The position numbers and the translations under genes were made by a program. Source: an uncultured Pseudomonadales bacterium (GTDB taxonomy: Bacteria > Patescibacteriota > Microgenomatia > UBA1400 > PJMF01). Taken from it: DNA of 64,000 bases. Numbering within the stretch: the stretch's first letter is position 1; each line of letters starts with the position of its first letter. The DNA is taken from the NCBI GenBank assembly GCA_964521215.1, contig CAZFRD010000003.1, positions 425 to 64,424 on the forward strand. The letters run 5' to 3'. The notes under the pieces were generated by a model. The model ran no database searches. It had not been told where the DNA came from and saw only the letters and a list, made by a program, of their open reading frames with translations. Shown here in pieces: positions 1,619-54,806 of this stretch.

Positions 1619-2602
1619 CTATACGACCTTTAAACAATTATTCTCCGTTTTTTTCCACCACGTCATTTGTCTTTTTGCATACTGGAATTCGTGAAGGGCC
1701 CAAAGTTGTTGACAGTTTTCTGCAGAAATTTCTCCATTTAGATAACTGCGAATTTCTGGCACGCCAAGCGTTGTTAGTACTGGGGCTGATGCTGGTAATT
1801 TAAGTTTGAGTAGATTTTTTACCTCTTGTATTGCGCCGCTGGCAAACCGTTTTTCTACTCGTTGTTTAATTCGCTTTTCTATTAGCTCCAGCGGCGCTGT
1901 GACTAATTCCACGTGATTATCAACTTGGCTCCACAGCATCGGCGAATTGGTTGATTTAGTCAGTGAGCCACTTCCATGTTTTTTTTGCCAAGTTGCCACC
2001 TCAATAGCACGAAGCAACCTTCGAGAATTCTCTCTGTCCGAATCATTCATCTGCTCCAACCGAGCTGAATCGATCTCTGCTAACCATCGTTGTAAATCCG
2101 CTACCGACATGTTTTCCGCCTTGCGTCTCATAGTTAAGTCTTGAGGAATTTGGGGTGTTACGTCATCAGAAAATAAATGTTTGTGATACAGCCCTGTGCC
2201 TCCTACCAGCATTGGTTGACGATTATTCGACCAGCTCCACTGCATAATTTCTCTTGCAAAGTTGACAAAATGAGCGAGAGACCACTCTGCAGTTGGATCG
2301 ATCATCGAAATTCCAAAGATTCGAATAGAGCCGTCTATATTTGTGAAGTAGTTAGGGTTGCTCTGAGGGGTGTCACACTGAGCATGTCGAAGTGTGACAA
2401 CCTCAAACCCCTCCGGCACATCCGCACCCGTCAAAATCTCCAATCCCTTATACACTTGCCTGGAGTCGGCACTGATCACATCCACCCCCGCCACTTTTTT
2501 CTCTCTCACCAATTGGCCAGCAATCGCCAAAGCTCTATCCGTCTTACCACAGGCGGTGGGACCAACAACAGAAATGCAGTGATTCGCTTGATCAATTTTC
2601 AT
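1619..2602 (-). CDS. miaA: tRNA dimethylallyltransferase
   Basis: N-terminal P-loop VVGPTACGKT and overall MiaA-like sequence. Overlaps the downstream NUDIX gene by 4 nt. Contains an in-frame palindromic repeat copy (see the repeat feature at 2367..2404). Confidence 0.85.
   Translation of the reverse strand: MKIDQANHCISVVGPTACGKTDRALAIAGQLVREKKVAGVDVISADSRQVYKGLEILTGADVPEGFEVVTLRHAQCDTPQSNPNYFTNIDGSIRIFGISMIDPTAEWSLAHFVNFAREIMQWSWSNNRQPMLVGGTGLYHKHLFSDDVTPQIPQDLTMRRKAENMSVADLQRWLAEIDSARLEQMNDSDRENSRRLLRAIEVATWQKKHGSGSLTKSTNSPMLWSQVDNHVELVTAPLELIEKRIKQRVEKRFASGAIQEVKNLLKLKLPASAPVLTTLGVPEIRSYLNGEISAENCQQLWALHEFQYAKRQMTWWKKTENNCLKVV
2367..2404. repeat. palindromic repeat unit, in-frame inside miaA
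   Basis: Sequence ggggtGTCACACTGAGCATGTCGAAGTGTGACaacctc. Perfect 8-bp inverted repeat GTCACACT/AGTGTGAC around an 11-nt loop. Same family as the units at 4681-4810 and 54226-54474. Confidence 0.7.
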
Positions 2603-3495: not shown

Positions 3496-4665
3496 TCAGA
3501 TAACCTTAGGTCTTCTCTTTAAATTGTCTTTATTGATCATCTGATCTAAAATTTCCCACCGGCGTTTTTTTTCTTTGTGAGGAATATCGTCTGGATAGAT
3601 CCGCCAACTAGCAGTACCAGGGCGAGGAGAGTACATCGCCACAAAACCTACATGCCAATCCATCTGCTTGGCCAGTTCCAGTGTTTCTTGAAATTCCTCT
3701 TCTGTTTCGCCGGCAAAACCAACGACAATATCAGTGCCGATAACAATATTCGGATCAGCCGATCTCAGTTTATTCACAACTTCAATATAAGTTTCTCTGG
3801 TGTAACCCCGGTTCATCCGATACAAAACAGCGTTGCTTCCAGACTGAACTGGTAAATGCACATAGCGATCAATTTTCTGATTCTTGCCAATTTCTGCAAT
3901 CAACTCATCATGAAAATCCCAAGGATTACTCGTCATAAACCGAATAGTTTTAACTTCGTCAAAGGCCGAAATCGCTTGGAGTAATTTCACAAACGGCGGC
4001 GTTTCGGTCGGCTTAAGATACTGCGACTGATTCTCCGGCAAATCTTCTCGATTAAAATCTGCCTTTTCCAACATCAACTTGCGAAAGCCAATCCCCACTT
4101 TTTCCAACCCCCAGGAATTCACATTCATACCCAACAAAGTAATTTCTTCGTAGCCCTGATCAACCAGCCTCTTTACTTCCTCCATAATGCTGGCAAATGG
4201 CCGAGACTGCTCTCTACCTCTGGAATAGGGGACGATGCAGTAGGTACAAAAAGAGTTGCAGCCAGTCGAGATGGGAATCCAAGCGTGCTTAGTATCTTTC
4301 CTTACAGCTGCTTGATTAAAACCAACCTCGTTAATCGGTAAAATTTCATCAATAATCGGCATCATGGTATACAATTTTTCATTGCCATGATGCACCATAC
4401 AACCGGTTAGAATTATCTTCGGTCGCTGTCTACCTTGTTCATTAAAATACACTGCCACCGTGTGCAAAAAACCTCTGGCACGATCTTCTGCCGACTGTCT
4501 GACAGCACAAGTGTTGATCACTAGTTCATCACAGGTTTGCCAATCGCTGGCTTCTGAATAACCACGAGCCTGATAATCACCAGCAATCCGCTCGCTATCG
4601 GACTTGTTGGACTGGCAACCAAAAGTATGAATAAAATATGTTGGCATGAAGGGATAGTGTAACAC
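3496..4665 (-). CDS. miaB: tRNA methylthiotransferase (radical SAM MTTase)
   Basis: N-terminal MTTase motif TFGCQSN and radical-SAM CxxxCxxC (CNSFCTYC). Sits adjacent to miaA. Confidence 0.75.
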   Translation of the reverse strand: MLHYPFMPTYFIHTFGCQSNKSDSERIAGDYQARGYSEASDWQTCDELVINTCAVRQSAEDRARGFLHTVAVYFNEQGRQRPKIILTGCMVHHGNEKLYTMMPIIDEILPINEVGFNQAAVRKDTKHAWIPISTGCNSFCTYCIVPYSRGREQSRPFASIMEEVKRLVDQGYEEITLLGMNVNSWGLEKVGIGFRKLMLEKADFNREDLPENQSQYLKPTETPPFVKLLQAISAFDEVKTIRFMTSNPWDFHDELIAEIGKNQKIDRYVHLPVQSGSNAVLYRMNRGYTRETYIEVVNKLRSADPNIVIGTDIVVGFAGETEEEFQETLELAKQMDWHVGFVAMYSPRPGTASWRIYPDDIPHKEKKRRWEILDQMINKDNLKRRPKVI

Positions 4666-4680
4666 TAACCCAATGTCTGC

Positions 4681-4726
4681 TTCGACACGCTTCGATAAAC
4701 TCAGCGTGACATCAGCATGACATTGG
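4681..4726. repeat. palindromic repeat unit (reverse orientation) plus partial inverse half
   Basis: ttcgacacgcTTCGATAAACTCAGCGTGAC is the reverse complement of GTCACGCTGAGTTTATCGAAGCGTG. It is followed by atcagcatgaca, which is also found at 54291-54306. Confidence 0.6.
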
Positions 4727-4747
4727 TTTAGTCATTTTGAGTAAGAC

Positions 4748-4810
4748 GGGTTGTCACACTGAGCAGTATCCCTGAGTTCATCGAGGGGTTGTCGAAGTGC
4801 GACAACCCCT
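4748..4810. repeat. palindromic repeat unit with ~27-nt loop insertion
   Basis: gggttGTCACACTGAGC[agtatccctgagttcatcgagggg]TTGTCGAAGTGCGACaacccc. The terminal GGGGTTGTCG/CGACAACCCC is a perfect 10-bp inverted repeat. The element encodes the last 9 codons and the TGA stop of the upstream minus-strand ORF. Confidence 0.65.
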
Positions 4811-5452
4811 TAACCAAGAATAAATTTCAAGCAATCCAACCACTAGTAATAACAATGCCGCAGGTTTCGACTGCATGGCCACATGAGCAAAGATCAACCA
4901 AAGAGCAACGTAGGTCAGTCGTTGTAAAACTTTCCAAGATTTACCAAGCTTTTTCATCGATAGATCATTTGAAGTTAACCAAACTGGCAAGAGTAACAAC
5001 CAAGCGATTAGGGCAACTTGTTCAAACAAACGGAAGGGAGTGGGGAAGACAACAGTACCAGTTGAAACTAATTGAATTGCGATATACGGCAAAGTACTAG
5101 AGAAGCTCATGTGCACAAACGCCGTGGTAAACATCAGAATACCCAAGTGACGACGAAAGGGGGTAATCAGGGTGGCAATGGGTAAAGTTACCAGAGGCAC
5201 TATTTTTAAACGCTTCAAGATACCGGGAAGTAAAGTCAGACAAAATAAAAGTAGTGCTGTAGTACCCAGTTTTCTCCCGATGTTCAGCACCACAAATACT
5301 TGCTGAGGACTTAATATTGCAGTCAAGAGAGCCAAAAGCCAGATCAGCACCAAAAAAATTTCGATAATAAACAAACCAGTATTAATCTGCCTTTGGCGAG
5401 GAATTAGTTGTTTTTGGACAAATAGTAGCAAATCGCTTAAGTTTTTTTGCAT
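4778..5452 (-). CDS. polytopic membrane protein (His in TM helices; possibly ferric-reductase/MsrQ-like)
   Basis: 224 aa with several hydrophobic segments containing His (FRRHLG, FVHMSF, FAHVA). The C-terminal GCRTSTTPR and stop are encoded by the palindromic element. Confidence 0.45.
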   Translation of the reverse strand: MQKNLSDLLLFVQKQLIPRQRQINTGLFIIEIFLVLIWLLALLTAILSPQQVFVVLNIGRKLGTTALLLFCLTLLPGILKRLKIVPLVTLPIATLITPFRRHLGILMFTTAFVHMSFSSTLPYIAIQLVSTGTVVFPTPFRLFEQVALIAWLLLLPVWLTSNDLSMKKLGKSWKVLQRLTYVALWLIFAHVAMQSKPAALLLLVVGLLEIYSWLRGCRTSTTPR

Positions 5453-10093: not shown

Positions 10094-10297
10094 ATGAAAA
10101 AAACTAAAATAAAAACCCGCAAAGGGGTAGCGCATCGCTTCAAAATCACTGGTAGTGGTAAAGTTATGCGTCGCTCACAAAATATGCGTCACCTCAGACG
10201 CAAAAAAAGTAAGAAGGCCATTCGTGCCTACCGCATACCCATCGAAGTCACGGGCAAGTGGGCCATAAAAATCAAAAAAATGTTAGGAATAGGGTAA
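10094..10297 (+). CDS. rpmI: 50S ribosomal protein L35
   Basis: Start MKKTKIKTRKGVAHRFKITGSGKV in the conserved infC-rpmI-rplT order. Confidence 0.85.
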   Translation: MKKTKIKTRKGVAHRFKITGSGKVMRRSQNMRHLRRKKSKKAIRAYRIPIEVTGKWAIKIKKMLGIG

Positions 10298-10301
10298 ACT
10301 T

Positions 10302-10655
10302 ATGCCAAGAACAAAAACTGGCGTCACTCGTCGCCACCGCCATAAAAAAGTTTTAGAATCCAACAAAGGTTTCCGTGGCGCCAATCGCCGGCTCTACAAA
10401 CGCGCTCACGAAGCGCTACTGCATGCTGGTCAATATGCCTACATCGGTCGCAAGTTGCGCAAGCGTGACTTCCGTAAACTTTGGATCACTCGTCTCTCAG
10501 CCGCTATCAAGGAAGTGAGCGCGGACCTCAACTACTCGCGAGTCATCAACTTGCTCAAAAAAGCCAATATTCAAATTAATCGCAAAATGCTTTCCGAAAT
10601 CGCTATTCGTGATTTTGAAACATTTAAACGCATCATTACCCAGGCGAGGGGATAA
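10302..10655 (+). CDS. rplT: 50S ribosomal protein L20
   Basis: MPRTKTGVTRRHRHKKVL...FRKLWITRLSAAIK. Confidence 0.9.
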   Translation: MPRTKTGVTRRHRHKKVLESNKGFRGANRRLYKRAHEALLHAGQYAYIGRKLRKRDFRKLWITRLSAAIKEVSADLNYSRVINLLKKANIQINRKMLSEIAIRDFETFKRIITQARG

Positions 10656-10688
10656 GGTTATCTAGCAAAAAATCATTAGCAAAGAACC

Positions 10689-10729
10689 CATCCAGACCCT
10701 CGCGGGGGTCCGGATGTGTTCTTTCATGC
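10689..10729 (+). terminator. GC-rich hairpin after rplT (putative terminator or attenuator ahead of pheS)
   Basis: CATCCAGACCC-tcgcgg-GGGTCCGGATG (11-bp stem with 1 mismatch) followed by TGTTCTTTC. Confidence 0.4.
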
Positions 10730-10750
10730 TGTACAATTAAAAGCACCATT

Positions 10751-33168: not shown

Positions 33169-36100
33169 GTGTGGAAATATTTTTGGAAATTATTTGTTAT
33201 TGCATCATTATTTTTTGTTCTCGTAGTTTTTAAACCTCTAAATACCGCTGAAGCTTACTGTAATCCAGACCTCTGGCATGATGCAACAAGTTGTCAGTCT
33301 AGTTGCACAAAAACACAATACAACGACTGCGACGTAACCAATACTAGAGTAGTATCATGTACTGGGGGTAGTTGTGCAGATCCGACTGCTACGCCAGGTG
33401 GTAATCCCAATGTTCGCTGTGGCAGTTGTACCTGCCCAGATGGAAGTACTAAAGCAAAGTGGTGTACCCCCGATTGCTCTGCCACTAACGCCTGTTGGTG
33501 TGATCCATGTGGAGGAGGTGGCGGGGGAGGGGGGAATAGTTGCTGTATGTTAGATGAGAATTGTACTGCTAGTAACTCATGTTACAACTGTAGTCCTGGT
33601 AACTGTAGAGGTTTTTGTGACTCCAATAATGAATGTTCGGCAGCGAGCTACGAAGGCGCCTGTACATATCGTTGTATAGCGGATCCCACCTCACCTCCTG
33701 GTTCCACACCCACTCCAACCTTTCCACCGCTTTGTGGCAACCTCAGCGTCGACCCTGGCGAGGCGTGTGATAATTACATTTACAATAGCAATACAGTCCC
33801 TAATGCCTGTCGGCTGAACTGCCAGTGGCCAGTCTGTGGCGATTTTGTAGTAGATAATACAAACGCCACTCACGGGGGGGTCAACGAAGAATGCGATGCC
33901 GGCGCTGGCAACAGCACCACTGGTTACTGTTCCAACAGTTGTTTACAACTACCCGAATATTCAAATTCTTGTAATCTGATAACTATTGGGCCTTATGCTT
34001 ATGATGGCGTGGACTTTACCTACTCGTACCGAGCGCAAAGTAACGCCAATACTCCAGGTAGTTACTCACCATCGCTACAAATGACTCACCTCAGAAACAA
34101 ATTAGGGATAGATCTTACCCCGCCCAATATTATGTATAGCGAAATAATTCCAAGTTGTAGTAATTACTCATGCACTTCCAACCAAACAATGACCATCGAT
34201 GGTGATTACTTGGTAGTGGATGGAGTAGGTCATAGTTTAACAGTAGGTGTCAATGTCTGGTCAACTATTGAGGGTGAGGCACACCAGTGCGAAACAAGCT
34301 GGTATAGCTCCACCTCGCCAGCATGGCCCAACGAAAACTCACTTAATGGCTGTGATAACAACTGCCGAACTACCATACCAATTATTAATAAGGTAGAGGC
34401 TGCCTGTAACAACTTCACTGTTGACGCTAGTACGATCAATGCAAGTAGTAACTTAACCATCACAGGAACAACTACGACTAATTTATCAGTGGGTCAAGTG
34501 GTACTACAGTACCAAATTCTTAAGGAAGATAACTCCACCACCACTTGGGAAGCCGTTCCAGGAGCAGCTTGCACCGCTACTGGCTCAGATTGGACATGTA
34601 CCAATGTTATTCTTCCTGAATTATTAGAAACTGACCAAGAAGTGAGATTTGATTTGATTCCACTAGTTACAGTTGCCTGTTCGAATATTACGCATCATAG
34701 CGATCAAAGTACGACCGACTGCCTAGTAGCGGCTGGTCCAACTACCGCAGTAAGATGTCGATCTTGGGGCTGGGCCGCTGGCTTGCCTCCCAACGACCAT
34801 CCCAACACTTCTTGTAGCAGTAGTTGTTATGTGGCTTTACCCGTCGGTGCTGTGCCTTATACCCCCACACCCACCCCCACAGTTACACTCACCCCCATTC
34901 CAACCAATACTGCCACACCAACGCCCATTGGAGCGCCCACCGCCACGCCCACCCACACACCCACACCCACACCTACGCCCACTTCTTCCGTACCAACGGC
35001 CACACCCACCAATACTCCTGCCGTGGCACCAGCATTCTGGGGTGAATTATTTTACGACTTCAACAACAATGGAGTTTATGAAACTCAATGTGACGTGGGC
35101 CATATCGTCGAAAAAATTGATTATGCCACCTTTGGCTGTACCGGAGCAGGTTGTACCGACTGCTCGCCCAAAGCTGCACTCGCTGCCCTAATTGGACCAC
35201 TCAACCGGTCACTAGAAGGATTTGAATTATTGGTGGAGGGCACCGGTTTCATTTGGCTCCCCAATCCCAAAATCAGACTCGCACCCTACAGTAGTAATCC
35301 GTTTTACTCGTGGAACGTGGCGCAAAATAATTCTTATACCCTGACTTTGACAGATCCTCGTTCCACCGTCCGTAACTGTAGCGTCACTACTGGTAATCCT
35401 CGCAATATCTCGGTGGGCACTTCCAATGTGGGCAATATTAACACCGGTATCATCTGTAGCCCTCCTTCCACACCCACACCAACGCCCACTCCCACAGCCA
35501 CCGTTACACCCACACCCACCGTCACACCCACTTCCACGCCCACACCCACGCCCACGCCTGGTCCCTATTGGCAAATCCAAGGTGGCAATCTCTTTTCTAA
35601 TGGCGATACTACTGTATTATTGCCAGATCTCTCGTCACTCGGCACCTCAATTCATTTAGCCGATAAATATCCAAATTCTGCTCTCAATATTAGCGCTGGT
35701 GCGGCCATTAGCAATGGATTACTATCAATCGGTTCTGGTTCACTTAATGATTTTTCGGCAAATTTTTCGGGTGAAAAAGTTGAAGAAACTAGCAGCTCGA
35801 TCTGTAGTGATTACACTTTTGCCAGTTTTGCGGATAGTTTAGATTTAGCTCATTTAACATCACAAGGGCCTTTATCAGGAACTATGATTGTCCAAGATTT
35901 CGACAATATATATGGTTCAGCTGTCGATCGGGGAGATTACAAAATTTTCTATCGCTCAGATGATCTACGCCTCAATATCGGAGTATTGTGGGAAGTTAAT
36001 GCAGATCCACCAAACAACAACAAACCCACCATCGTAGTGGTTGATGGAGATCTTGAAGTTGCCTCCATCGGAGGTTTGGAACAACTCATTGACCTAAATC

Positions 36101-36471
36101 CAAATACATTTCTTGGCTTTATTGTCTCTGGCGATATCATTTTTGAAAGCTCAGTGGGCAACAACGTTAGTTCTTCAACTATACCTCCAGGAATTCCAGA
36201 CAACGAACTAAGCAATGTAGAGGGCTTATTCTTCTCGACCGGAAAACCAACCGGTGGCGGTAATGTTATCGTCCAATCAGCCACTCTACCCGCAGAGGAT
36301 AAACGCTTCGTGGGTGAGGGCACATTCATTGGCTGTGCTGGTGTAGAGTTACAGCGAGCCCTTCAAATCAATAATAATAAAACTGAGATATTCCGTTTCA
36401 AACCAGACTTACTATTGAACGTACCAACCGACTTAAGAGAGGCACATATATCATGGCAAGAAATCAACTAG
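33169..36471 (+). CDS. 1100-aa cysteine-rich secreted protein with Myxococcus-type Cys-rich repeats, poly-Gly and PT linkers (candidate pilus-associated adhesin)
   Basis: Signal peptide. Two repeats of the form CGxxxVDPGEACD / CGDFVVD...EECDAGAGNS..YCSNSC. A GGGGGGGGNSCC tract. PTPTPT linkers at ~34858-35025 and ~35465-35565. The stop overlaps the start of the pilin gene at 36453. Confidence 0.7.
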   Translation: MWKYFWKLFVIASLFFVLVVFKPLNTAEAYCNPDLWHDATSCQSSCTKTQYNDCDVTNTRVVSCTGGSCADPTATPGGNPNVRCGSCTCPDGSTKAKWCTPDCSATNACWCDPCGGGGGGGGNSCCMLDENCTASNSCYNCSPGNCRGFCDSNNECSAASYEGACTYRCIADPTSPPGSTPTPTFPPLCGNLSVDPGEACDNYIYNSNTVPNACRLNCQWPVCGDFVVDNTNATHGGVNEECDAGAGNSTTGYCSNSCLQLPEYSNSCNLITIGPYAYDGVDFTYSYRAQSNANTPGSYSPSLQMTHLRNKLGIDLTPPNIMYSEIIPSCSNYSCTSNQTMTIDGDYLVVDGVGHSLTVGVNVWSTIEGEAHQCETSWYSSTSPAWPNENSLNGCDNNCRTTIPIINKVEAACNNFTVDASTINASSNLTITGTTTTNLSVGQVVLQYQILKEDNSTTTWEAVPGAACTATGSDWTCTNVILPELLETDQEVRFDLIPLVTVACSNITHHSDQSTTDCLVAAGPTTAVRCRSWGWAAGLPPNDHPNTSCSSSCYVALPVGAVPYTPTPTPTVTLTPIPTNTATPTPIGAPTATPTHTPTPTPTPTSSVPTATPTNTPAVAPAFWGELFYDFNNNGVYETQCDVGHIVEKIDYATFGCTGAGCTDCSPKAALAALIGPLNRSLEGFELLVEGTGFIWLPNPKIRLAPYSSNPFYSWNVAQNNSYTLTLTDPRSTVRNCSVTTGNPRNISVGTSNVGNINTGIICSPPSTPTPTPTPTATVTPTPTVTPTSTPTPTPTPGPYWQIQGGNLFSNGDTTVLLPDLSSLGTSIHLADKYPNSALNISAGAAISNGLLSIGSGSLNDFSANFSGEKVEETSSSICSDYTFASFADSLDLAHLTSQGPLSGTMIVQDFDNIYGSAVDRGDYKIFYRSDDLRLNIGVLWEVNADPPNNNKPTIVVVDGDLEVASIGGLEQLIDLNPNTFLGFIVSGDIIFESSVGNNVSSSTIPPGIPDNELSNVEGLFFSTGKPTGGGNVIVQSATLPAEDKRFVGEGTFIGCAGVELQRALQINNNKTEIFRFKPDLLLNVPTDLREAHISWQEIN

Positions 36472-52796: not shown

Positions 52797-52873
52797 TGGT
52801 GGACCGAAGGGGGCTCGAACCCCTGACCTCCTGCATGCCATGCAGGCGCTCTAGCCAACTGAGCTACCGGCCC
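52797..52873 (-). tRNA. tRNA-Ala (GGC)
   Basis: Reverse complement reads GGGCCGG-TAGCTCAGTTGGCTAGAGC-G-CCTGC-ATGGCAT-GCAGG-AGGTC-AGGGG-TTCGAGC-CCCCT-TCGGTCC-A-CCA. The G3:U70 wobble is the Ala identity pair. Confidence 0.85.
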
Positions 52874-53120: not shown

Positions 53121-54059
53121 CTACTTAAAATCTGAGTGAAATTTGTGATGAGCCTGCTTGAGCTGTGGTCTGGTGACGTGCGTGTAAATTTGTGTCGTAC
53201 CAATATCTTTGTGACCCAACATTTCTTGAACATCACGGAGTGAAGCGCCATTACTCAACAAATCCGTGGCAAATGAATGACGAATACCGTGGGGGGAGAC
53301 TCTAATAGGCAAACGGGCTTTACGACAGTAGGTATCCACCAGGCGCTGAACACTCCGTGCCGTCAAGCGCATCTCTTCTCCGTCGGAAAGAATATCTGGT
53401 TGTTTGCCAGAAAAACGAATAAACACCGGGTCCCAATTATCTCGACGAGTGTTCAGCCAACGCTCCAACCAGCTCTTGGCTCGATCACTCAAGAACACCA
53501 CACGTGGACGCCTTCCCTTACCAATCACCCCAAACTCTTGAGAGGTCATGTTGACTTGATCACGATTGAGGTTGACCAACTCACTTACCCGCAAACCAGT
53601 AGAAAACAGCACTTCCAGTAACGCCTTATCTCTCAAGCCCGATTGTGAGGATAAATCTGGTTGTCCGAGCAAGCGCTCGATACTTTCTATTGGCAAGAAC
53701 TTCATTAGACGAGCTTCTGCCTTGGGTAAATCAATTTTTTCTGGCTGAATCACTGGTACGTCGTTTTTTACCAACCATTTCAGCCAGGATCGTAAACCGA
53801 TGACATAGTAACTTTGAGTCCGTTTCGAGAGGGTTTCGCCTTCATCATCTTCATATCTTGCTAGATAAATGCGATACTTTCTAATAACTTCCTTATCTAT
53901 TTGTCTCACATCGTCAATTTCTAGATCTTTTAGCCAAGTACAAAATCGTCGTAAATATAATGAATAATTGCGAATGGTCAGTCGACTCACGTTGCGTTCA
54001 ATTTCTAAATGTTCTAAATATTGGGTTAAAAGTAAAAATGGTTCAGTCGGAAATGCCAT
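53121..54059 (-). CDS. tyrosine-type site-specific recombinase/integrase (XerC/XerD/phage-integrase family)
   Basis: N-terminal SAM-like domain. Catalytic region HGIRHSFATDLL...LGHKDIGTTQIYTHV with R, H-x-x-R and Y. Confidence 0.85.
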   Translation of the reverse strand: MAFPTEPFLLLTQYLEHLEIERNVSRLTIRNYSLYLRRFCTWLKDLEIDDVRQIDKEVIRKYRIYLARYEDDEGETLSKRTQSYYVIGLRSWLKWLVKNDVPVIQPEKIDLPKAEARLMKFLPIESIERLLGQPDLSSQSGLRDKALLEVLFSTGLRVSELVNLNRDQVNMTSQEFGVIGKGRRPRVVFLSDRAKSWLERWLNTRRDNWDPVFIRFSGKQPDILSDGEEMRLTARSVQRLVDTYCRKARLPIRVSPHGIRHSFATDLLSNGASLRDVQEMLGHKDIGTTQIYTHVTRPQLKQAHHKFHSDFK

Positions 54060-54225
54060 GCTTGAATTACTATATCAGAAATCAGCAACCGGCTTCTAGC
54101 AACGGTTAATTTTGTTTTAGCTTGTCTTATCAACTTATTACCGTTCTCTACATGGTGGATAGGTTCTCTATTGCCCCAAAATCGGCTTTTTACTAGTGTG
54201 GATGACCAGTTAATCATTGTATTTT

Positions 54226-54310
54226 GGGTGTCATGCTGAGCCTGTCGAAGCATGAATAGCCAAACTCAGCATGACACCCAAATTCAGAGTGACATCAGCA
54301 TGACACCAGC
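54226..54310. repeat. composite palindromic repeat (unit + inverse half + partial unit)
   Basis: GGGTGTCATGCTGAGCCTGTCGAAGCATGA-atagccaaa-CTCAGCATGACACCC. Outer 15-bp perfect inverted repeat. Followed by agagtgacatcagcatgacacc. Confidence 0.7.
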
Positions 54311-54344
54311 CCAGCCTCTGATTGTATATCTGGTTGTACCTCAA

Positions 54345-54380
54345 GTTGTCACACTGAACCTGTCGAAGTGTGACAACGAG
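54345..54380. repeat. palindromic repeat unit
   Basis: aGTTGTCACACTGAACCTGTCGAAGTGTGACAACgag, a 10-bp perfect inverted repeat. Confidence 0.7.
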
Positions 54381-54440
54381 CATAGAGACAGGCGAGCAAT
54401 GTCTGCCTTAGTGAACTCAAAGTAGCGCCTGGATGAACTA

Positions 54441-54474
54441 AATGTCATGCTGAATTTATCGAAGCAGACATTAC
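54441..54474. repeat. degenerate palindromic repeat unit
   Basis: aaTGTCATGCTGAATTTATCGAAGCAGACAttac. Confidence 0.5.
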
Positions 54475-54806
54475 TAAAGCCAACCATATTTTTTTAGATA
54501 CAATGTCGTAAAAGTAATATTGTGCGACATAATAGATTTGTGAAGATTGACCAATTGTGGTGGGGGAAGTAGTCCCCCTCTAACTTGCTTAAACAAGAAA
54601 TTATTTGTTTGCTTAAATTCATCTCTGATGCTAGTTAAACCCCACCCCAAGGGTACCTTCAAATATCGATAAAAAGATGATCTTCGTATGGTCTCCAGTA
54701 TGGGTTCGGGTTATTTATTCCCGCATCACTACCACACAGCGATTTACACACACAATTTACTCGAGTTATAGTCTTATAATAATTAAGTTTTCCACATTCT
54801 ACTCAG

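Follow-up and report, generated by a model that had tools for sequence, protein, structure and literature searches.

Short hairpin repeats that bracket a nuclease gene have been described in Neisseria, where repeat and gene form an NTS-ssnA-NTS architecture and the SsnA protein cuts single-stranded DNA (ssDNA), and only one of the strands, beside the NTS hairpin (Chenal et al. 2025, PMC11893778). The same study defined Ssn-related motifs (SRMs) across phyla, reported Rickettsia to be rich in them, and found NTS copies to be intragenic in 2% of cases in N. meningitidis (PMC11893778). A different class of repeat, the Rickettsia palindromic elements (RPEs), measures ~100-150 bp and comprises ten families, every one of them coding for a conserved peptide; these elements are specific to Rickettsia and are inserted in frame at surface loops of proteins (PMC10969869). 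The subject of the present analysis is a much shorter hairpin repeat, one copy of which lies within the reading frame of miaA, the gene for tRNA dimethylallyltransferase, in a stretch of 64,000 nucleotides (‘the window’; contig CAZFRD010000003.1) from an uncultured bacterium of the Patescibacteriota.

In our judgement the miaA segment is likely to be a trapped, SRM-like ‘selfish’ hairpin repeat that sits in a permissive loop of the protein and evolves there as DNA. New with respect to the published families are a dialect that the published motif misses, a very wide distribution, the colonisation of protein loops in frame, and a series of states at one orthologous site.

A hairpin repeat in the miaA reading frame

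The host gene (1619-2602, minus strand; 327 aa; Pfam IPPT, E 1.9e-42) is the sole long open reading frame (ORF) that spans the unit. The 27-nt string GTCACACTGAGCATGTCGAAGTGTGAC matches positions 2372-2398 of the plus strand without a mismatch, and consists of 6-nt arms around a 15-nt core, CTGAGCATGTCGAAG, that runs forward on the plus strand and is antisense to miaA. On the coding strand the unit reads GTC ACA CTT CGA CAT GCT CAG TGT GAC, in frame, and encodes V69-D77 (VTLRHAQCD). A preliminary description, made from the letters alone, had placed a palindromic unit in frame within the minus-strand miaA ORF; the exact match and the uninterrupted 327-aa frame bear this out, and the peptide given there, VVTLRHAQCDTPQSN, corresponds to residues 68-82. 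The unit is the centre of an extended palindrome, GAGGGGTGTCACACT...AGTGTGACAACCTC (plus strand, ~2366-2404), with 12-nt arms that form nine Watson-Crick pairs and one G-T pair, and that corresponds on the coding strand to E67-P79. Folding of this palindrome yields -23.6 kcal/mol for the coding-strand RNA (z -2.0) and -26.2 kcal/mol for the plus strand (z -3.3). Comparison at the DNA level places a half-arm-like segment, ACCCCTCAGAGCAAC (T78-N82; CTCAG-NN-(T)GAC; 2357-2371, minus strand), directly after the unit. This downstream half-arm, CCTCAGAGCAAC (PQSN), may however be ancestral coding sequence, because the pattern Q-x-D-L-P-Y (TQPDLPY/TQADLPY) is also found in two orthologues that carry no unit (L137 and L008, see below).

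A protein search with the window MiaA returned 5979 homologues, of which the closest named one belongs to a Candidatus Woesebacteria bacterium and others to the Patescibacteria group; no database record was found for the exact sequence, and a contig search with the MiaA protein alone returned one irrelevant Bacteroidales locus. Across the alignment neither the P-loop nor the DSRQVY motif varies, and the repeat-coded segment is distant, in sequence, from the conserved motifs and leaves the catalytic ones untouched. An AlphaFold model of the protein (mean predicted local distance difference test score (pLDDT) 86, pTM 0.82), for which Foldseek ranks 3foz and 2zm5 highest, both complexes of E. coli MiaA with tRNA, falls below a pLDDT of 50 only at residues 1-4 and in two internal segments, 72-79 (RHAQCDTP, repeat-coded) and 216-220. 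Since strands 67-69 and 85-87 are predicted on either side of residues 72-79, the repeat would form the tip of a beta-hairpin. In the alignment with S. epidermidis MiaA, query residues 68-95 are unaligned and chain residues 61-64 part the two aligned stretches; the equivalent unaligned stretch in the E. coli alignment is query 74-99. The segment from GADVP to F/H-G-I/V-S measures 32 aa in the window, against a typical 23-25 aa among 120 homologues from the candidate phyla radiation (CPR), in which it ranges from a minimum of 9 up to 64 aa, in agreement with the earlier remark that this MiaA is slightly long.

The hairpin family and its distribution

The unit has the consensus TGTCA-NN-CTGAG-CYTGT-CGAAG-N'N'-TGACA, a hairpin of 27-39 nt whose 15-nt core hardly varies and whose 2-bp box covaries, and the asymmetry of the core, CTGAGCYTGTCGAAG, gives each unit its orientation. 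In a gapless alignment of 14 CPR copies the core (C13-G27) is almost invariant, while the two pairs that adjoin it are never unpaired and draw on three and four types of pair. Covariation scores 0.347, as against 0.139 in shuffles (0 of 500 reached the observed value) and 0.10-0.15 in slid registers. Read by eye, the CTGAG and CGAAG segments might form C-G, T-A, tandem G.A/A.G and G-C pairs that enclose a pentaloop.

A metagenome scan with TGTCANNCTGARNNTRTCGAAGNNTGACA found the unit in at least 120 contigs. Among the matches listed, contig GC content lies between 0.31 and 0.69, with a median of 0.39 and with 20 contigs at 0.55 or above, and of 127 distinct units 104 have an NN/N'N' box that is fully Watson-Crick (chance 1/16), with at least nine dinucleotide types, and 101 have the loop CTGAGC(C/T)TGTCGAAG. 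A scan of 2.9 million viral contigs gave two matches.

Exact units also lie in frame within other long ORFs, whose Pfam domains flank the unit or extend across it: in a UvrA-like protein (L060, aa 518-529), in a type IX secretion (T9SS) C-terminal sorting domain protein (L100, aa 666-677), in a TP_methylase-MazG protein (L061, aa 112-123) and in the linker of a 2-oxoacid dehydrogenase E2 acyltransferase (L126, aa 318-329). The contigs concerned differ widely in GC content. Depending on orientation the encoded peptide is of the type VTLRQAQGD or VILSLSKDD, and the VTLRHAQCD of the window belongs to the first of these. Other CPR homologues of MiaA carry similar peptides at a second variable site of the protein.

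Known classes of RNA or DNA element were also considered. The Rfam gathering scan of the whole window returned three tRNAs only, and E-value scans of 2300-2470 and 54150-54550 returned only far-sub-threshold miRNA-like hairpins and no described RNA family. A hammerhead-like reading of CUGA...GAA was rejected by inspection, because G8/A9 and stem II are absent. The consensus of integron attC sites is RYYYAAC...GTTRRRY; the unit, by inspection, ends in the opposite sense, GTT...AAC. As for a terminator, no T-run follows the miaA hairpin, and the only terminator-like match in 2200-2600 is at 2272-2287. Full-text literature searches for the core DNA or the encoded peptides gave no match, and literature searches on palindromic repeats of CPR bacteria brought up nothing relevant.

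States of the repeat at orthologous miaA sites

Comparison of syntenic loci (Ferric_reduct, MiaB-like, NUDIX, miaA) from nine relatives and two outgroups revealed empty, filled, inverted and nested states of the same site. It is empty in L008 (protein P0014, AVMATQADLPYF), which resembles the unit-free outgroup L137 (..TQPDLPYP..); the outgroup L136 is likewise free of the unit. A simple unit in the window orientation is found in the window, in L002 (GTTCCT CTTCGACGGGCTCAG AGTGAC) and in L010. In L013 (CTGATCCCGCCGAAG) and L007 (CCCAGCTTGTCGAAG) the same arms enclose a 15-nt core that is inverted, so that the L013 core matches that of L002 at 13 of 15 positions as its reverse complement and at 7 of 15 directly. 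L005 carries a nested inner unit that adds 24 nt (CCC TTCGATAAACTCAG GG), and in L009 the unit is followed by three extra CTCAG-NATGAC half-arms. Finally L011, whose MiaA is 46% identical, has an independent forward-orientation unit in the same loop (GGTGTCATGCTGAATTTATCGAAGCATGGACAC, 10277-10309) and a loop-enlarged unit at the second variable site (10679-10732). Every one of these states is in frame, and the unit peptides (VTLRHAQCD, VPLRRAQSD, VTLPLAQYD, ITPSLSKSG and VTLIPPKSD) include two with an inverted core.

The preliminary description had asked whether some 13 residues form a lineage-specific insertion in a surface loop, and would have been refuted if orthologues from genomes without the repeat shared these residues. 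They do not: the residues differ in the unit-free orthologues, and the core of that interpretation therefore stands. Its details need adjustment. The position in a loop agrees with the low pLDDT at 72-79, but no more than 8 residues are gained, on balance, relative to the empty site; and the insertion is not private to the window genome, being old in a miaA clade with 66-82% protein identity. A spike of divergence at the unit was not supported by comparison of the window with L002, in which the 30-nt span at the unit is 70% identical and the whole gene 80%.

The second variable site follows the RAIEV helix and is equivalent to residues 216-220 of the window protein, where pLDDT is low. It has received repeat-derived insertions in P0027, P0033, P0038, P0103 and L011, some of them of other dialects (..STALRMTQDD.., ..RNKFGMTT..).

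The short length of the unit is the only argument for regarding it as a chance palindrome or an assembly artefact, an explanation that is hardly credible: neither the GTCACACTGAGCATGTCGAAGTGTGAC string nor the arm-gap-arm pattern was matched in any of 100 dinucleotide-preserving shuffles, and assemblies made independently from Logan, ENA and JGI samples carry a unit at the same site. The main rival is of another kind. In all seven orthologues the 12-nt arms are complementary at 8-11 of 12 positions, with compensatory changes, while the peptide varies and even flips, as might be expected if the hairpin were a selected cis-element of the miaA transcript or DNA (a translational pause, an RNase site or a replication/recombination signal) and the peptide its by-product. 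The coding-strand fold of -23.6 kcal/mol can be counted on the same side, and it is otherwise only the persistence of complementarity that favours a cis-element. We regard it as rather unlikely, because the unit occurs at unrelated intergenic sites, in contigs of 31-69% GC (among the matches listed) and in every kind of context; because L008 and the outgroups L136 and L137 manage without it; and because the unit has no T-run or terminator-like signal, with an mRNA-strand z of only -2.0. Quasipalindrome-templated correction, an established mechanism, can moreover keep arms complementary in the absence of selection.

Further copies in the window and modes of change

The window contains one exact unit and five to six relatives at three sites, with related copies at 4664-4808 and 54223-54475, and the unit is thus a dispersed palindromic repeat, as had been proposed. 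At 4748-4808 (plus strand) lies a unit with the same arms (GGGTTGTCACACT/AGTGCGACAACCC), whose loop contains a nested 24-nt inner unit, CTGAGTTCATCGAGG (4770-4788). The Ferric_reduct ORF (4778-5452, minus strand) runs into this unit at its 3' end and takes from it its final nine codons and stop (..GCRTSTTPR*); in L002 the orthologue comes with a simple 33-nt unit and a 238-aa product, as against 224 aa in the window. A reverse-orientation unit (4664-4732, minus strand), itself with a nested inner unit (4686-4708), lies upstream of a MiaB-like radical-SAM gene. The third site comprises a unit, TGTCATGCTGAGCCTGTCGAAGCATGA, followed by two reverse half-arms (54223-54307, plus strand; an 18-bp perfect inverted repeat), the closest paralogue of the miaA copy, GTTGTCACACTGAACCTGTCGAAGTGTGACAAC (54345-54377, plus strand), which differs from GTCACACTGAGCATGTCGAAGTGTGAC by two loop mismatches over 54348-54374, a decayed reverse unit (54396-54419) and a forward unit, AATGTCATGCTGAATTTATCGAAGCAGACATT (54441-54472). 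This forward unit and the copy at 4664-4732 have identical 34-nt outer arms, down to a bulged A, although 50 kb separate them, which points to copying between loci.

Changes within the units can be followed where close relatives are available. L003 and L004 have identical MiaA proteins and are told apart by a block of 21 nt, ATGTCACGCTGAGTTTATCGA, within the loop of the unit that lies upstream of the MiaB-like gene (L003 1-172, L004 1-188 and window 4664-4732 were compared); the difference must therefore be recent, and the window carries the filled form. The junctions of this block are ambiguous by at most 1 nt, so that there is no target duplication of the kind left by MITEs (miniature transposable elements with inverted repeats). 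At 4748-4808 the 24-nt inner unit of the window is absent from L002, and the 24-nt inner unit in the miaA gene of L005 is of the same type, CTGAGTT(T/C)ATCGA(A/G)G, as that nested unit of the window. Nesting of the inner core, CTGAGTTTATCGAAG, has occurred independently at three places, and each of these nestings therefore targets the loop of a resident hairpin. Half-unit duplications of 18 and 24 nt distinguish the contigs L039, L088 and L050, which are closely related. The five indels seen in unit clusters (L003/L004, window vs L002, L005 vs L010, and L039/L088/L050) are all multiples of three (21, 24, 24, 18 and 24 nt), even in intergenic positions, a pattern that with n=5 could be chance.

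Several of these changes might be expected from local fold-back or template-switch errors and slippage at quasi-palindromes, with gene conversion carrying the products to new loci and no dedicated enzyme involved. The core inverts between fixed arms, half-arms are duplicated in tandem in L009, in L039/L088 and in Planktothrix, the target-site duplication is 1 nt at most, and in the nested unit of L004 the new arm CACGCT is complementary to, and pairs with, a pre-existing AGCGTG. As a complete account such errors are nevertheless unlikely. The 15-nt core is near-identical over contigs of 31-69% GC (among the matches listed), which is impossible by local errors, and it is because the core is kept across such different genomes that we reject local errors alone. 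The 34-nt outer arms with their bulge, common to sites 50 kb apart, the threefold independent nesting of CTGAGTTTATCGAAG and the strong association with GIY-YIG genes stand against it as well. Template switching, insufficient by itself for the core, may well be the source of the inversions and arm duplications.

Associated GIY-YIG genes

ORFs of at least 100 aa (1513 in number) from the metagenome loci listed, at least 120, were clustered. Among these loci the only recurrent small neighbours of the units are ~100-aa proteins with the Pfam domain GIY-YIG (PF01541), at a median distance of 34 nt from a unit, and no Y1 or other transposase family recurs. A hidden Markov model (HMM) built from these GIY-YIG proteins detected eight intact genes and a broken one in 787 kb. 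In L042, L077, L094, L099 and L117 the layout is forward unit, gene, reverse unit: the forward unit lies 10-60 nt upstream of the start, and the reverse unit overlaps with the gene's 3' end or comes straight after it, with C-termini like ..HGSTSSP. L063 has distant upstream units of mixed orientation and L076 a different kind of repeat; this reading of the layouts leaves out L045.

A tblastn search with one such protein against plasmid and chromid records returned six genes, of which four were inspected (Planktothrix agardhii, Sphingomonas parapaucimobilis, Methylobacterium bullatum and M. aquaticum). On both sides of the genes from the first two species stand the dialects TGTCATTCTGAGTGAAACGAAGAATC and CTGAGCGAAGTCGAAG, and the Methylobacterium pair, read by eye, has a looser CCTCATCCTGAGG...CCTCGAAGGAGG variant, again on both sides. 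These four genes were picked by protein similarity alone, yet they are bracketed by inverted repeats of the CTGAG...CGAAG type, which supports the link between the repeats and a partner gene. The L099 protein is 44% identical to that of Planktothrix, and NCBIfam holds no match for the flanked GIY-YIG proteins. On plasmid p1 of P. agardhii (L139; NZ_LR882964.1, 18247-19716) the hairpin-flanked GIY-YIG gene has a restriction-modification gene of the MmeI type on one side and drmA, which encodes the DISARM helicase, on the other, and so lies within a defence island.

A more general proposal, which we offer tentatively and hold to be possible rather than probable, is that hairpins of the CTGAG-pentaloop-CGAAG type and ~100-aa GIY-YIG genes form a distinct pairing, present in many bacterial groups and missed by the published SRM search, the units of which would prefer the exposed loops of resident hairpins and repeatedly colonise permissive loops and linkers of housekeeping proteins in frame (two sites in MiaA, UvrA, E2, T9SS), with stem-mediated inversion and nesting rewriting 5-20 residues at a time. 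If this were true, such pairings would constitute a general, nucleic-acid-driven source of variation in protein loops.

Origin of the miaA segment

The history that we favour for the miaA segment, that of a trapped hairpin repeat, would begin in the ancestor of a Woesebacteria-like CPR clade, in which a copy would have landed at, or been built at, the tip of a lineage-specific MiaA beta-hairpin. The copy would have been tolerated, and would have survived, because it added a multiple of three bases and no stop codon in frame, within a structurally permissive loop. Its later evolution would have been that of a DNA element rather than of a protein segment, with stem-mediated inversion of the core between the arms, nesting and half-arm duplication, while the arms were kept complementary. 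The copy is presumably neutral for the enzyme. Given the recurrent architecture and the work in Neisseria, we infer that the family may spread through the action of a GIY-YIG ssDNA nuclease on a folded single strand.

A number of points weigh against this history. Relative to the empty site the genes have gained a net +4 to +24 codons, which is unequal to one unit length, and newly nested units reuse pre-existing sequence as one of their arms, so that local templated synthesis, rather than transposition, may contribute. The GIY-YIG HMM found no gene in the window (64 kb) or in related CPR loci (~190 kb in total), and a partner nuclease for the units of this genome is therefore hypothetical. 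For the flanked GIY-YIG proteins the nearest solved structures are of UPF0213 (1zg2, 1ywl), and these proteins may belong either to the Ssn clade (cd10448) or to UPF0213. Arm complementarity among orthologues of 66-82% identity fits a selected function in mRNA or DNA too. The SRM pattern matches neither strand of the window, nor the common metagenome unit. To our knowledge, moreover, no insertion mechanism has been described even for the NTS, and SsnA is a nuclease for which we know of no demonstrated transposase activity.

These findings link an oddity of one CPR gene to a hairpin family distributed over genomes of 31-69% GC (among the matches listed) and to single-strand nucleases of the Ssn type, and they indicate that the published motif misses at least one very abundant dialect. 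The orthologous miaA set is a rare stepwise record of hairpin evolution within a reading frame. For annotation, the units account for the recurrent peptides VTLRQAQGD, VILSLSKDD and FDKLR.. in ORFs that span them. For enzymology, the loci provide candidate nuclease/hairpin pairs with a defined 29-nt substrate, for example an L099-type protein with TGTCATCCTGAGCTTGTCGAAGGATGACA.

Other features of the window

The cluster at 54223-54472 (four to five units or half-units) is directly upstream of a XerC/D-like tyrosine recombinase gene (53121-54059, minus strand; Phage_integrase and SAM_1 domains), which adjoins a tRNA gene (52800-52873). This recombinase was considered as a mobiliser of the units and set aside, there being no supporting pattern elsewhere. 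An 1100-aa ORF (33169-36471) contains long ACC/CCC-rich repeats (34865-35567) with periods of 12 and 18 nt, and its product is probably Thr/Pro-rich; the protein resembles those of the surface or the cell wall and has no relation to the hairpin family.

Comparison with known systems

With the RPEs, to which the preliminary description had likened it, the miaA copy has in common that it is a palindrome in frame within a housekeeping gene, at a structurally tolerant position: the RPE hallmark of insertion compatible with the fold is seen here in the beta-hairpin tip with a pLDDT below 50, in a loop predicted to be disordered and exposed. The analogy does not extend to membership of the family. 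The present units measure 27-39 nt as opposed to 100-150 bp; the RPE peptide is conserved and that of the unit is not; and the units are spread over genomes of 31-69% GC. A deeper link between RPEs and SRMs is possible, since Rickettsia is SRM-rich.

That the units might themselves be RPEs, or else ordinary MITE or REP sequences moved by a transposase or a REP-associated tyrosine transposase (RAYT), is accordingly a very improbable explanation, even if in-frame insertion at a surface loop does recall the RPEs (PMC10969869) and REPIN-like doublets do occur (54223-54282; Sphingomonas). The REP/REPIN-RAYT system (PMC3116915) also consists of short hairpin repeats, some in inverted doublets, that flank a single-copy enzyme gene. 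That enzyme is a Y1 transposase, however, and the repeats are species-specific and extragenic by definition, whereas the units described here are intragenic as well, have a core common to very different genomes and, among the matches listed, have GIY-YIG genes as their only recurrent small neighbours. The terminal inverted repeats and target-site duplication of MITEs are both lacking from the 21-nt block that distinguishes L003 from L004. RPE, REP-RAYT and MITE membership thus each fails on at least one defining feature.

Elhai and colleagues are said to have described, in 2008, small dispersed repeats (SDRs) of 21-27 nt in Nostoc that nest in one another and differ between close strains. The present units resemble these SDRs as hairpin repeats of that size range, with nesting and with differences between close strains; we know of no SDRs beyond the cyanobacteria and of no enzyme assigned to them.

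The resemblance to the NTS and SRM repeats goes further. Both they and the present unit are oriented hairpins of 20-50 nt with a 5' GTCA start (TGTCAY fits HGTCWY); both families exist as hundreds of dialects over phyla and are mostly intergenic; and in both, repeats stand on either side of a single-domain GIY-YIG gene of ~95-100 aa. There are also differences. The SRM pattern, HGTCWYN(0-2)YYVSBRHN(0-5)WNVSBRGN(0-2)RNCYNB, fits the NTS example but not the present units, of which only the first six positions fit. The NTS stem is fully Watson-Crick (CCCGCG/CGCGGG), as opposed to a core of CTGAG-pentaloop-CGAAG with a possible tandem G.A. In-frame copies, loop inversion and nesting, all of which are found in the present family, are not described in the NTS paper, and the Ssn system has its nuclease gene, while none is seen in the CPR window. 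Among described systems, the closest to the miaA unit is nonetheless that of the NTS/SRM repeats beside Ssn GIY-YIG nucleases (PMC11893778).

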